64,000 nucleotides of DNA, from assembly GCA_963769425.1 (NCBI GenBank), contig CAVYLP010000003.1:224001-288000 (forward strand). Direction: 5' to 3'. The stretch is from Candidatus Bathyarchaeota archaeon (lineage in GTDB: Archaea > Thermoproteota > Bathyarchaeia > TCS64). The notes under the pieces were generated by a model. It was not told where the DNA came from. It searched no databases and worked only from the letters and a program-made list of their open reading frames with translations. The position numbers and the translations under genes are program-made. Positions 3,094 to 43,263 of this stretch are shown in pieces. Within the stretch, counting starts at the first letter, position 1. Each line of letters opens with the position of its first letter.

Positions 3094-3194
3094 GCAAACC
3101 CTCCGATTTAAGTATAGTGACTATGGTCTATAACACTTTTTCTCGATCCCAACTTGAGTTTGGATTCGCTTACTCCATCGCTTGGAACATCCAC

Positions 3195-3400
3195 GGCGGA
3201 AAATCGTTATCCCATCCTACTAGGAACCCAACTCCAGCTACTAGGAACCAGACACCGCCACAAGGAACAAGACACCGCTACATGGAACACGTGACCCCGC
3301 TGCTAGGAACAGCCAGACACCGCCACACGGAACATTGACCCCGTAGCTAGGAACACATGACGCCGCCACTAGGAACAGTGACACCGCCACTAGGAACACT
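3195..3400. repeat. Phased degenerate tandem array A1 (9 units, about 21-bp period, core CYACWAGGAAC) headed by GGCGGAAAATCGTTATCC
   Basis: GGAA at 3223, 3244, 3264, 3284, 3306, 3329, 3350, 3372, 3393. Confidence 0.9.
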
Positions 3401-3461
3401 GTCCCATCCACGGGGACAGACTAGGCGAATGCTCCCTATACCCGCTGCCCGGAATTGGCGC

Positions 3462-3690
3462 GGCGGAAAATCGTTATCCTATGCTACAAGGAATCCCATT
3501 CCTAGCTACAGGGAAGAAACTACCAGCTACAAGGAAGAAAATACCCGCTACCAGGAAGAAAGTTCCAGCTACAAGGAAGAGACAATACCAGCTACTAGGA
3601 ATTGAATTCCAGCTACCAGGAAGAAACTACCCGCTACAGGGAAGAAGACAATACCAGCTACAAGGAAGTAAGTTCCAGCTACAAGGAATA
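3462..3690. repeat. Phased tandem array A2 (10 units, TWCC(A/C)GCTAC(A/C/T)AGGAA with mostly 5-bp spacers) headed by the same 18-mer
   Basis: GGAA at 3490, 3512, 3533, 3554, 3575, 3598, 3619, 3640, 3664, 3685. Confidence 0.92.
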
Positions 3691-3709
3691 CGAGTCAGAG
3701 GAGTGGGCC

Positions 3710-4018
3710 ATGCGAGGAAGTACATATTCTCAGACTCTGAGGCTAGGGGATTAACTCGCCGGGGAGACGGAGGACGAGTCATATCCCTACATGCACCCCT
3801 ATCTCAGGGATGAGAGCTTCATAGCCAACCTCTAGGCGAGGCAAACCGGCAAGGCCTTCAACGAGATGGCAAAGCTCCTGTACTTGGCCTCAAAATACAG
3901 GGGGAGCACCTCACTCGTCACGGCCCCCAAGTTCGACCAGGTCAAGAACATCAAGCATCTAACCGACCACCTCCGGCGTATGAAGGCCAGAGACCTGGGC
4001 CTCTTCATACATCGATGA
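3710..4018 (+). pseudogene. Truncated terminase large subunit-like ATPase N-terminus with in-frame stops
   Basis: YPYMHPYLRDESFIANL*ARQTGKAF..LLYLA..LVTAPKFDQ resembles the terminase adenine-binding, Walker A (RQxGK) and 'AP..Q' segments; TAA at 3752, TAG at 3833. Confidence 0.6.
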
Positions 4019-5126: not shown

Positions 5127-6395
5127 CTTGGAACGCTCAACCTTCACTTGGGCCCCAGTCTTCATATCCCGAATAGTCAGGCATCCTTCCGCGAGCTCAC
5201 GCTCACCGATTATCACGACCTTCCTCACGCCCTTCTTGTCAGCGTACTCCAACTGCTTCGAGAAGCGTCTACCGAGGAGATCGACCACCGTGGAGACTCC
5301 GACCGCCCTCAGGTCTTGAGCGACTTTTATCGCTTCACTTTTCACCGAGTCGGATATCGAGGCGATCAGCACGTCTACTCCGAGCTTGATTTCTTTGAAG
5401 CCTCCCTTTGTCTCTATCAGTGGGACGAGACGATCGATACCGAAGGATATTCCGGTTGCCGGTGTGCTCCCGCCGCCCATGAGATTAATGATCCCGTCAT
5501 ATCTCCCACCTCCAGCGATGCTTCCGTAGTCCTCGTAACCCTCTGCTAGAACCTCGAAGACTGGTCCAGTATAGTAGTCCAGACCTCTAGCGAGGCTGAG
5601 CTCGACAACGATGTACTCGGCGTAGCCAAAGGACTTCGCGTAATTAATTAACTCTCTAAGAGCCTTCAGACCGGCAAGTCCTTCAGGAGAATCAGTAAGT
5701 TTCCCCTCAGTCTCATCCAGAACCTTGGCAGGAGTACCGGTTTGGGCTAGTGATTCTAAGAGTAGATTAGCGGATTCCGCTTCCACGGACAGCTTCGCAA
5801 GCTCCTGGACAACTCCGTCTTTCCCTATTTTCAGCAGCTTGTCCACTGCCCGAATGGCTTCCAATGTGCGGTCCTGTGGAACCCCTGCTTTTTTGATGAA
5901 TGCCTCGAGTATTCTCCTGTCGTTGAGCTTTATCACGAAGCCCTCGAAGCCCATCTTCTTGAGGCAGTCGACCGCGGCAGATAGGACCTCTGCGTCAGCT
6001 ATTGAGCCACTTACACCAACCGTGTCGGCGTCGGCCTGCCAGAACTCTCTGAAACGCTTCTCGCTGGGGTTTTCGTATCTCCAGACGGTCCCCATCGCGT
6101 ACCTCTTGAAGGGCATCTGGAGTTCGCGATGCACGGCCACCACGCGTGCAAGGCTCGTCGTTAGGTCGAACCTGAGTCCAAGCTCCCTGTCCGCCTTATC
6201 CTTGAAGTAGTAGATCTGGTTTATCACGTCCTCCCCGCTCTTCAGCTTGAGTAGCTCCCAGCTCTCGAAGGCGGGTGTTCCCAGGGGCTCGAAGCCGTAG
6301 GCCTCGTAGACCCCCCGTATCTGGTCCAGGACCCAGTTCCTCTTGTACATCTCCTCGGGGAGGAAGTCCCGGGTACCGCGTGGTGGCTGGTACAT
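5103..6395 (-). CDS. hisS: Histidyl-tRNA synthetase
   Basis: PRGTRDF, LRFDLT, RFREFWQ, LARGLDYYTG, GGGRYD. Confidence 0.97.
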   Translation of the reverse strand: MYQPPRGTRDFLPEEMYKRNWVLDQIRGVYEAYGFEPLGTPAFESWELLKLKSGEDVINQIYYFKDKADRELGLRFDLTTSLARVVAVHRELQMPFKRYAMGTVWRYENPSEKRFREFWQADADTVGVSGSIADAEVLSAAVDCLKKMGFEGFVIKLNDRRILEAFIKKAGVPQDRTLEAIRAVDKLLKIGKDGVVQELAKLSVEAESANLLLESLAQTGTPAKVLDETEGKLTDSPEGLAGLKALRELINYAKSFGYAEYIVVELSLARGLDYYTGPVFEVLAEGYEDYGSIAGGGRYDGIINLMGGGSTPATGISFGIDRLVPLIETKGGFKEIKLGVDVLIASISDSVKSEAIKVAQDLRAVGVSTVVDLLGRRFSKQLEYADKKGVRKVVIIGERELAEGCLTIRDMKTGAQVKVERSKLLECIGA

Positions 6396-29037: not shown

Positions 29038-29115
29038 TGGAGCCCCGGGCGGGATTTGGACCCGCGATCTTTTGCTTACCAAGCAAACGCTTTAGCCTGG
29101 CTAAGCCACCGGGGC
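29038..29115 (-). tRNA. tRNA-Thr(GGT), CCA encoded
   Basis: Acceptor GCCCCGG/CCGGGGC, anticodon arm TTTGC-TTGGTAA-GCAAA. Confidence 0.93.
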
Positions 29116-38243: not shown

Positions 38244-38636
38244 GTGCGATCAAAATTGACAATCGTTATCGACCCCTCAAAGGAAGGTCTCGAAAAAGTC
38301 CTCAGGGACTACCAGATCGAGGCACTGCAGATCATCTGGAACAGCGACAATAAGGGCATGACCTCACGCGAGGTCTACCAGGCGGTCAACAAGTCGCTCG
38401 GGAGTAAGACAATCTCAAGGGCCTCCATAATCAACTTCCTCAACGATATGTGCGACGAGGGAGTCCTGAAGTACGAGGAGGAGACCTGCAAGGGCGGGAC
38501 CCGTAGGAAGTACTTCACCGGACTTGACGAGCTTGGTTTCAAGAAACATGTGGCCAAGGTTGTATTCAAGAGTCTCATGAAGGACTTCCCTGTGCAGACA
38601 AGGGAAGCCGTCGAGGAAGTCATCAACGACAACTAG
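38244..38636 (+). CDS. Winged-helix DNA-binding protein (BlaI/CopY-like)
   Basis: IIW..MTSREVY..ISRASIINFLNDM..GVL..KGG. Confidence 0.75.
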   Translation: MRSKLTIVIDPSKEGLEKVLRDYQIEALQIIWNSDNKGMTSREVYQAVNKSLGSKTISRASIINFLNDMCDEGVLKYEEETCKGGTRRKYFTGLDELGFKKHVAKVVFKSLMKDFPVQTREAVEEVINDN

Positions 38637-39862: not shown

Positions 39863-40019
39863 ATCTAGTCGATAGATGAGGCTTGGATCTGGAGATTTAA
39901 CCTCTTCGGGGTTAGCCACAGGTGTAAAAACCCATTTTTTTTTATTTATGAACAGTGGCAAAAATTATAGGAACAGGTCCACTGGAGTTGTAGAACTCTT
40001 GAACGACTACATGTTCATC

Positions 40020-40255
40020 GATTCCTAGTGGCAGGTGCAAAAAGTGATGAATTTCCGGGATACCACCCTACTAGGAATCCACACCCAACCAGCCAGTGAG
40101 CCATACCACCCTACTAGGAATCAGATTCCTAGTGGCAGGTATCAGAGGGTCGAGGTGAGCACTCCGCGATTCCACCCTACTAGGTATGGGATTCCTACCC
40201 ACAGGTGCGAGTCATACCATGCTACTAGGAATCCGGTTCCTAGTGGCAGGAATCC
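40020..40255. repeat. Array B: alternating TACCACCCTACTAGGAA / TTCCTAGTGGCAGGWA units on a 22-bp lattice, related to A1/A2
   Basis: Units at 40022, 40061, 40104, 40126, 40170, 40192, 40215, 40237; exact 20-mer at 40060/40103; perfect palindrome 40113-40133. Confidence 0.9.
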
Positions 40256-40487
40256 ACGCGGGGTTAGTTGCCATGAGGAAATTCCACTATTTAATCGCCC
40301 TAAAGGGACACAGGAAGATCCATTCGGGGCTTTCGCACTATCTATTCACTATAGATACACGAGTTCGCCCTGTAATTTTGATTTTTTTCGCAGCTTTTTA
40401 ACCCCCACTCGTCGAGGTCCAGAACAAATAATAATCGGTTAACTGTTGTTAATTAAAATAGAGCTAAAAAGGCTAGCTTTAAGGAAC

Positions 40488-43170: not shown

Positions 43171-43263
43171 CGGGCCTGAGGGGATTTGAACCCCTGACCA
43201 ACGGCTCTCTTCGACCCTAAGGTCCTAAAAGGCCGACGCTCTTCCTTGCTGAGCTACAGGCCC
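43171..43263 (-). tRNA. tRNA-Lys(TTT) with 19-nt canonical intron (43207-43225)
   Basis: Acceptor GGGCCTG/CAGGCCC; CTTTTA|GGACCTTAGGGTCGAAGAG|A forms a BHB. Confidence 0.9.

Follow-up and report, generated by a model that had tools for sequence, protein, structure and literature searches.

Phage packaging sites of the pac/cos kind, such as SPP1/SF6 pac, have short repeats just upstream of, and extending into, the small gene before the large terminase gene, and the R sites of lambda cosB are comparable packaging-recognition repeats. The SF6 small terminase's DNA-binding domain reportedly showed little specificity for the pac repeats. In plasmid centromeres and iteron arrays, exemplified by R1 parC, the omega heptads of pSM19035, and F sopC, about ten phased repeats are bound cooperatively by a small dimeric protein. 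CRISPR repeats measure about 23 to 50 nt and alternate with unique spacers of about the same size. Bacteria are well known to carry families of interspersed repeats, whose source, to our knowledge, is usually obscure. BOX has the modular build boxA-boxB(n)-boxC, with a variable number of the internal tandem subunit. According to PMC3049150, the pneumococcal BOX, RUP, and SPRITE elements are small interspersed intergenic repeats of one species and its nearest kin, judged to be parasitic and slow in turnover.

Here, we describe a repeat family of a bathyarchaeial genome that, by analogy, appears closest in kind to such species-restricted interspersed repeats and, in position and makeup, to phage pac/cos sites. 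A full-text literature search for such arrays in archaea returned nothing relevant, the papers listed being on CRISPR or viruses; within that search, we know of no printed description. The copy that we analyzed, at 40020-40282, is probably a virus-derived dispersed modular repeat, whose units would be double-stranded DNA sites from a control or packaging-recognition region.

Repeat units in the DUF1805-rps27ae gap

The window is a 64,000-nucleotide stretch (G000:C3:224001-288000, with C for contig) of genome G000, which comprises 2.55 Mb in six contigs and is 91% complete. Positions without a contig name refer to the window. Rereading the sequence bore out the layout that the original prediction had given for 40020-40255, including its exact repeats and palindromes. 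The 20-mer ATACCACCCTACTAGGAATC is present in exact copies at 40060 and 40103, and the 17-mer GATTCCTAGTGGCAGGT (repeat family D2) at 40020 and 40124; two further copies of the 17-mer, at 40190 and 40235, are degenerate. Two palindromes are near-perfect: the first, ACTAGGAATC/GATTCCTAGT, has its arms at 40113-40122 and 40124-40133 (inverted repeat I11), and the second has them at 40220-40231 and 40237-40248 (inverted repeat I5). The same inverted geometry opens block A2 of a second locus in the window, locus A, where CTACAAGGAATCCCATTCCTAG lies at 3484-3505. Both TCCACTGGA at 39978 and an A/T run at 39930-39970 are present to the left of the array.

In total, 40020-40252 contains seven units with a CTAC-NN-GGAA core, including three inverted pairs. 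A position weight matrix (PWM) made from 19 units of locus A only (3190-3700) found six sites of 16.2-19.1 bits and a seventh of 8.8 bits here; at least 16 bits are reached at only 171 positions of the 2.55-Mb genome, both strands counted. The matrix from locus A thus recovered the second locus, and the claim that the two loci share one motif holds. The features of the gap are as follows.

40020..40282, plus strand: B element, one copy of a dispersed element of about 190-280 bp (alignment of copies)
39970..40019, plus strand: possible trace of the 3' end of viral gene U, including TCCACTGG at 39978; tentative, from alignment columns of ..Y-x-Y-W codons in other copies and alone not significant
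40020..40037, minus strand: unit 1, PWM 17.2 bits; core TTCCTAGTGG, minus-strand reading CCACTAGGAA
40038..40061, plus strand: A-rich, leader-like segment, GCAAAAAGTGATGAATTTCC... (alignment of copies)
40062..40079, plus strand: unit 2, PWM 16.2 bits
40105..40141: inverted pair 1, unit 3 on the plus strand (40105-40122, PWM 16.2 bits) and unit 4 on the minus strand (40124-40141, PWM 19.0 bits); I11
40144..40260, no strand: segment absent in a strain variant, with 5 letters instead (joint 40143->40261, one contig each in runs X1, X2, and X3)
40171..40206: inverted pair 2, degenerate (GGTAT / TTCCTACCCAC); plus-strand unit with PWM 8.8 bits, D1/D2 copies of 70-76%
40216..40252: inverted pair 3, units on the plus strand (40216-40233, PWM 18.2 bits) and the minus strand (40235-40252, PWM 19.1 bits); I5
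40273..40282, plus strand: ATGAGGAAAT, first codons (M-R-K) of gene Y, all of Y that remains at the window copy

The B element has a sharp left border at 40018-40020, and its right border lies at 40282 by comparison with the closest copy, C3:378738-378999 (93.6% identity over 264 bp). There are at least 11 substantial and at least 5 partial copies in the genome, all starting at the same GATTCCTAGTGG... border. The right borders vary, and block content is mosaic across copies, with break points at repeated motifs. When five pairs of copies were compared at their borders, no target duplication, direct repeat, or shared target motif was found. A C/D-box reading of GTGATGA...CTGA within the element was dropped: most copies have GTGATGT, and the spacing does not fit what we take to be the box consensus.

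Environmental contigs revealed variation at this site. In the three runs with the joint 40143->40261, 117 bp are exchanged for five letters. A contig of 1114 letters from a fourth run (X4), differing at 55 of them, extends from the MBL gene across DUF1805 and into the element up to 40120, and another contig covers 40230-40712. We conclude that strains about 5% diverged carry the B element at the same place. Furthermore, the summed depth over 40010-40157 was 57-73 (runs X1 and X2), compared to about 10 in most flanking bins, which is a multicopy depth, and loose contig ends with other flanks begin at 40017-40020.

A dispersed and lineage-restricted array family

Genome wide, the PWM had 387 matches at 11 bits, compared to 215 with the reversed-matrix control, and 231 of the 387 fell into 26 clusters. 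Together with two weaker B-like loci, these clusters make up about 28 arrays. This count, in which 40020-40255 is one of about 28 intergenic arrays, substantiates the proposal that the motif belongs to a dispersed family. Indeed, 27 of the 28 arrays lie outside open reading frames (ORFs) of at least 150 amino acids (aa), although such ORFs cover 78% of the genome. With the relaxed core C[TC][AG][CG]NNGG[AT][AT], the next neighbor on the same strand was 21-24 bp away in 117 cases, compared to 6 with a reversed-core control; harmonics of this lattice appeared at 39 and 43-45 bp, and 14 inverted pairs had a start-to-start offset of 15 bp.

Two architectures were found. In type A, a block comprises up to about ten units, all in the same orientation, and is opened by a leader, GGAAAA(A)(T)CGTTAT(A/C)CC, which has 21 matches in the genome, at least 18 of them directly followed by a unit. 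Each block has a unit flavor of its own (GGAAC, GGAAG, GGAAT, GGTAC, GGTAT, GGATC, or GGAGT). Type B, to which the locus at 40020 belongs, is the element of 190-280 bp with alternating inverted pairs. A locus holds 4-23 units, and composites of blocks reach 870 bp, for example at C4:107354-108223. The 10-nt core and the leader are conserved, while the 11-nt linkers diverge between blocks.

The family is lineage restricted. A two-unit tandem pattern, found 40 times in G000 (reversed control, 0), was absent from all 40 related genomes, 17 of them congeners, many of the 40 being fragmented metagenome-assembled genomes (MAGs) in which repeats are possibly underassembled. DUF1805 was located in 14 of the 17 congeners, with rps27ae adjacent in 13 of these 14 loci, and in all 13 the gap between the two genes is shorter than in G000: the aligned gene parts are 26-160 nt apart in ten, 334-457 nt apart in three, and 530 nt apart in G000. 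No unit was present in the five of the 13 gaps that were inspected (G002, G008, G015, G006, and G012). In the synteny check called for by the original prediction, gene adjacency was thus kept in 13 of 14 loci, and the element was absent from the inspected gaps. The gaps of G002 and G008 hold a small ORF on the minus strand and are homologous to the G000 gap only over the last approximately 90 nt beside rps27ae. Because only these 90 nt align, we conclude that the G000 element, with about 200 nt of other sequence, replaced the small ORF. The insertion was thus accompanied by a deletion, and the copy in this gap would be a lineage-specific insertion in place of a small gene.

Beyond the relatives, a metagenome scan with leader plus unit yielded 14 stretches, of which 4 were real arrays. 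Two of them (L193 and L194) come from one sample and resemble arrays of G000 itself: L193 shares 94.7% identity with the flank of the array at C6:260 kb over 1,688 nt, and L194 matches array sequence only. The other two (L191/L183) belong to another organism, with 74% nucleotide and 83% protein identity to G000 at C6:401 kb, and show this same core and this leader at a site that lacks an array in G000. A three-unit pattern matched 91 stretches in genome_contigs, with titles mostly of bacterial MAGs plus one Methanosarcinaceae; these were 50-58 nt long, which is the length that the pattern permits, and on their titles we took them as unrelated. The same pattern matched 7 stretches in viral_contigs.

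In its makeup, the G000 family is similar to BOX, being dispersed, intergenic, variable in subunit number, and limited to a species and near kin, without being homologous to it. BOX differs in being bacterial and unrelated in sequence; moreover, we know of no demonstrated viral origin for it, whereas the flanks of the G000 arrays identify a virus junction as the source. A CRISPR array was ruled out by the period of 21-24 bp, the 10-nt core, and linkers of about 11 nt that are alike within a block.

The viral junction as the source of the arrays

Upstream of many arrays, on the array strand, we found an open frame ending ...L-S-Q-[ST]-K-x-Y-x-Y-W, which we named U. Downstream, there is a start M-R-x-Y-[IV]-F-T-x-x-E-R-R-x-L, which we named Y. 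The U remnant corresponds to the last approximately 70 codons of an ABC-ATPase/GNAT-like gene and the Y remnant to the first codons of its gene. Profiles from relatives, searched on the array's strand only at E values of 0.01 or below, detected U upstream of 6 and Y downstream of 6 of the 28 arrays (9 of 28 with either). A separate search added C3:378 (E value of 1.8e-6), where the same ten bases as at 40273-40282 run on into a Y pseudogene, so that at least 10 of the 28 loci have remnants; four further loci gave weaker matches (E values of 0.03-0.09). At the window copy, where only 10 nt of Y are kept, the U match was not significant in the profile search. Every U and Y remnant shares the strand of its array, and the order is the expected one: end of U, array, start of Y. 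Locus A, too, is followed by a Y remnant.

3200..3690, plus strand: locus A, with 21-22 bp units in two blocks, each of one orientation and opened by the leader GGAAAATCGTTATCC, at 3200 and 3467
3710..3754, plus strand: Y remnant downstream of locus A (M-R-G-S-T-Y-S.., stop at 3752), profile match with E value of 0.033
3836..4018, plus strand: fragment of a large terminase (TerL) gene, Walker A region, with 16 identities in 35 residues against positions 73-107 of the TerL from a related virus

The TerL fragment had an E value of 2e-7 in a single comparison, and locus A as a whole is 95.5% identical over 534 bp to C6:762648-763179. The ATPase gene is not intact in G000; what was found of it are fragments corresponding to residues 440-511, at array loci. 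G000 does have one intact-looking Y-TerL pair (C2:93304-95193), whose 400 nt of upstream sequence showed no tandem units. A TerL pseudogene lies at C6:24151-25410.

In relatives, U is the C terminus of an open frame of 490-568 aa directly upstream of Y. The protein has an ABC-type ATPase domain (PF00005, 1.7e-10) and a GNAT-like stretch just below the Pfam cutoff (20.1 versus 20.7 bits); PADLOC gave only generic P-loop matches for the ATPase. Y, of about 80 aa, starts 10-75 nt after U, and the gene order is U-Y-(85 aa)-TerL, so that TerL lies two genes past Y (PF03237, 1.3e-9; PF17289, 5.5e-11). Further neighbors of U and Y are a tail tube-like gene, a tape measure gene (PF10145, 3e-36), an 834-aa fiber gene, and the gene for the 85-aa coiled protein. 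Head-tailed viruses of Bathyarchaeia are described in PMC10848311. Among six IMG/VR contigs with the ATPase gene, TerL was adjacent, on either side, in 4 of the 5 records searched, and the gene order around TerL differed among these viruses. Two of the six contigs end 51-90 nt past the ATPase gene, yet TerL is upstream of that gene there. A reading of the U-Y junction as a genome end is weakened by the varying gene order around TerL.

A provirus remnant of the congener G002 has a minimal version of the arrays. Its junction between the ATPase gene and Y contains one unit in inverted orientation, ATTCCCAGCCAC, an A/T run, and a pair of direct units at a distance of 21 bp, CTACTGGGAA and CCACTGGGAA, followed by a Shine-Dalgarno-like G run and the Y start. 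This junction aligns with the first approximately 70 nt of the B element, both for the window copy and for the copy at C4:352 kb. According to the alignment, the A-rich segment at 40038..40061 has its homologue in the A/T run that separates the ATPase/GNAT-like gene from Y in the congener provirus remnant. More distant viruses have other short palindromes at the junction and a GGAAAAATTATAAC...GTTATAG stretch resembling the leader. From the minimal version in G002 and the alignment of the junctions, it follows that the repeats are native to the junction and were amplified in the G000 lineage. The junctions of related viruses are only 10-75 nt long and without arrays, and long arrays were not seen in any intact virus; in line with this, TRF found no comparable arrays when applied to the surroundings of Y or U homologues, both in relatives and in IMG/VR contigs. 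Judged by the order of the remnants, the copies carrying U and then Y fragments represent a contiguous junction and not the two ends of an integrated element. We conclude that the repeat family is dispersed, modular, and lineage restricted and that it derives from the noncoding junction that precedes Y and TerL in a head-tailed virus.

The junction resembles a phage pac region in several respects. The repeats lie at the small gene that precedes the large terminase gene, as seen in the gene order of the relatives, in the remnants, and in the G002 junction, and the G000 module, like pac regions, spans a promoter-like leader and the first Y codons. In contrast to pac/cos, there are not few but 4-23 units per locus and about 28 copies in the host chromosome; arrays were not seen in an intact virus, and Y would be a small terminase by position. 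The position would fit phage packaging-recognition repeats and also a site for a late-operon repressor. As for Y itself, its structural model is helical (H8-20, H25-57, and H69-82; pLDDT 81). Foldseek with this model gave best E values of 8.4 (PDB) and 0.8 (BFVD) and nothing at 0.001 or below; a PDB sequence search with the Y profile gave a single match (E value of 0.39), and PHROGs gave none below 0.06 for the winged helix-turn-helix (wHTH) protein encoded at 38244-38636, Y, and U. A search for the Y family yielded 79 clusters, every one hypothetical. Single family members matched Pfam Terminase_7 (E value of 0.043, one paralogue) and RHH_9 (E value of 0.041). In G000, Y paralogues are located at C4:351851-352123 and C2:94954-95193.

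Putative duplex sites and the competing readings

The original prediction had favored sites on double-stranded DNA over RNA repeats as a reading of the units, and this is still the most economical reading. We infer that the units are protein-binding sites on duplex DNA because the 10-bp core is conserved while the 11-bp linkers drift by block, because the spacing is two helical turns and both orientations are used, and because the variants CTAC, CTAG, and CCAC alter one hairpin arm without compensation. In agreement with this, RNAalifold detected no covariation (term of +0.14, double change in 2 of 22 pairs).

According to our preferred explanation, a virus-derived repeat of putative duplex sites, the source would be a short noncoding junction in the virus packaging block, between the end of U and the start of Y, a gene for a small helical protein ahead of the large terminase gene. 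In G000, this junction would have expanded into arrays whose 21-22 bp units share the core CTAC-NN-GG[AT][AT]. In type A arrays, blocks of one orientation follow a promoter-like leader, and in type B arrays, the units form alternating inverted pairs. The module would now occupy about 28 intergenic sites, often with a few codons of U and Y. The units would be bound by a sequence-specific virus protein acting at the junction, for which the candidates are a packaging recognition subunit (Y, in the small-terminase position) and a packaging-operon repressor. Spaced by two turns, the bound proteins would lie on one face of the helix.

The amplification could also have left a decaying relic, virus-derived satellite-like DNA that grew by slippage and unequal recombination and has no present function. 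The mosaic blocks with their break points, the 117-bp length variant among strains, and the pseudogene state of the flanking genes would all suit such a relic, and the pneumococcal elements are judged parasitic on similar grounds in PMC3049150. However, core and leader stayed conserved despite divergence of the linkers and recur in another species at another locus, and the junction alone of the virus was found at many places, as far as a search for other virus-gene fragments, covering TerL, shows. We therefore regard a functionless relic as possible but rather unlikely. Another proposal is that the arrays act as RNA, for example as a protein sponge, as processed small RNAs, or as a long 5' leader of Y. 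The leader sequence, GGAAAAA-CGTTATAC, would be an archaeal BRE/TATA-type promoter. The type A blocks run strictly in one orientation behind it, with a unit directly following at least 18 of the 21 leader matches, related viruses have a similar A-rich TTATAA/GTTATA stretch just upstream of Y, and the B element has a folding z score of -4.6. But any inverted repeat gives a strong fold, type B uses both orientations, the hairpin arms show neither covariation nor compensation, and at gathering score Rfam found two tRNAs only in the 64-kb window, with no match over the arrays. Taken together, function as RNA appears improbable to us.

A nonautonomous transposon similar to a miniature inverted-repeat transposable element (MITE), with the units as subterminal sites of a transposase supplied in trans, would be short, multicopy, intergenic, lineage specific, and noncoding, and so is the G000 family. 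The sharp left border and opposed terminal units (inverted repeat I4, 40020-40033 versus 40220-40233) also resemble a MITE; the 14-nt arms of I4 are 93% identical, but any alternating unit pair yields such arms, and right borders differ between copies. Moreover, the five pairs of copies share neither a target duplication nor a common target motif, no transposase or integrase family recurred when the 1128 ORFs lying up to 5 kb from the 28 arrays were clustered, the right ends vary, and the internal lattice and the carried gene fragments, ordered as in the junction, are foreign to a MITE. The insertion at 40020 was not clean, since it came with the loss of a small gene. For these reasons, a MITE-like family appears improbable to us; termini of a known MITE or insertion sequence, which the original prediction had named as speaking against it, were not found. 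As a side observation, D-aminoacylase-like amidohydrolases are encoded near 5 of the 28 arrays; we take this as a large family met by chance.

The original prediction had suggested a host chromosomal system for segregation, chromosome organization, or replication, in which centromere-like, origin-linked, or nucleoid sites are bound by a host protein such as the wHTH protein encoded at 38244-38636. Phased tandem iterons in both orientations do resemble plasmid centromeres and iterons. This claim was not supported by the comparison with 40 relatives, in none of which the tandem arrays were found, and the inspected syntenic gaps lack units; in addition, virus gene remnants flank the arrays. In the neighbor-gene clustering, no par, partition, or replication genes recurred near the 28 arrays, and the many chromosomal copies and the origin in a virus packaging block set the family further apart from plasmid arrays. 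A link to an origin was not supported either: in the genome at its 91% completeness in six contigs, the only Cdc6/Orc1 (Cdc6_C match) is at C1:24396-24674, 86 kb from the nearest array (C1:110218) and on another contig than the window. The lack of adjacency to orc1/cdc6 speaks against an archaeal origin with ORB elements, and the ORB-core-like TCCACTGGA (39978) aligns with the Y-x-[YH]-W codons that end U in other copies, weakly so for the window copy. The wHTH protein is BlaI/PadR-like by weak Pfam matches below the cutoff. Its gene belongs to a conserved block (wHTH-small gene-MBL-DUF1805) and was found at full length in 10 of 14 congener loci (65-95% identity) and in part in 1 more. As no tandem-unit arrays were found in these congeners, we conclude that this syntenic host gene does not encode a dedicated partner of the units. 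A paralogue adjoins the B-like element at C4:352 kb, which may be coincidence; only two of the four close paralogues are within 1.5 kb of an element. A host chromosomal system is thus very improbable.

The viral source of this family is unusually clear; its function and its mobility are what we infer. If the units still bind a viral protein, the genome would harbor a virus signal for control or packaging in dozens of copies, with consequences for transduction, conflict between virus and host, and the plasticity of bathyarchaeial genomes. That the arrays are working recognition sites for viral packaging or replication control, seeded around the host chromosome, seems to us a long shot. If such sites work, a resident or visiting head-tailed virus could package from about 28 chromosomal places, and packaging from the arrays would amount to built-in lateral transduction or satellite-like hitchhiking; conversely, the arrays could be decoys that soak up the viral protein. 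As a caution, phased "iteron-like" arrays in housekeeping gaps may not be chromosome-maintenance sites. We know of no cultured virus-host system for Bathyarchaeia, and the arrays provide a concrete DNA motif and a few small candidate proteins. In summary, the flanks of the arrays point to their source, the junction that precedes the terminase genes in a head-tailed virus of archaea.

The DUF1805-rps27ae gap and its surroundings

In the congeners G002 (locus L131) and G008 (locus L130), the gap between DUF1805 and rps27ae holds a short ORF on the minus strand, about 100 aa long. Comparison with these loci (window 40290-40440) revealed that our genome lacks this ORF and that the array element occupies the gap. 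At 40046-40052 and 40122-40126, a GTGATGA and a nearby CAGA/CTGA resemble C and D boxes. This resemblance was judged to be chance: their spacing is wrong for such boxes, and GTGATGT replaces GTGATGA in most other copies. Two tRNAs were detected in the window, and the longer one may contain an intron.

tRNAs in the window
43171-43263, minus strand: tRNA match, 93 nt against a 71-position model
29041-29115, minus strand: second tRNA

Genes adjoining the large terminase

In archaeal head-tailed viruses, a gene adjoining TerL, the large terminase gene, on either side, encodes a protein of 490-568 aa that combines an ABC-type ATPase domain with a GNAT-like stretch (L152:181-1758; L148:187-1779; IMG/VR loci L175-L180). 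Its best PADLOC matches, mad3, mad8 and LmuB, were at P-loop level only. In related viruses without unit arrays, two short inverted repeats lie in the gap between this gene and Y, the small gene preceding TerL; one of them is the perfect 24-bp palindrome CATGTTAATGGATCCATTAACATG (L152, about 1715-1745, G027; L165, about 5765-5795, G029).

TerL copies in the array-bearing genome
C6:24151-25410: TerL pseudogene with four stops
C2:93304-95193: intact-looking Y-TerL pair

No tandem units were seen in the 400 nt that were read ahead of the Y gene on C2. This pair is possibly a provirus.

Amidohydrolase and winged-helix genes

Within 5 kb of 5 of the 28 arrays, we found a D-aminoacylase-like amidohydrolase gene or fragment (near C1:110 kb, C2:143 kb, C4:107 kb, C6:495 kb and C6:520 kb); at C6:520426, the array abuts one such fragment.

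Winged-helix gene in the window
38244-38636, plus strand: BlaI/PadR-like winged-helix (wHTH) gene, strongly conserved and syntenic among congeners

Its look-alike clusters in the Atlas include tailed-virus members, and three closer paralogues are present in the same genome (C6:946 kb, C4:352 kb and C4:370 kb). The paralogue at C4:352 kb is the divergent neighbor of an ATPase/GNAT-like gene remnant, an element like that in the DUF1805-rps27ae gap and an intact Y gene.
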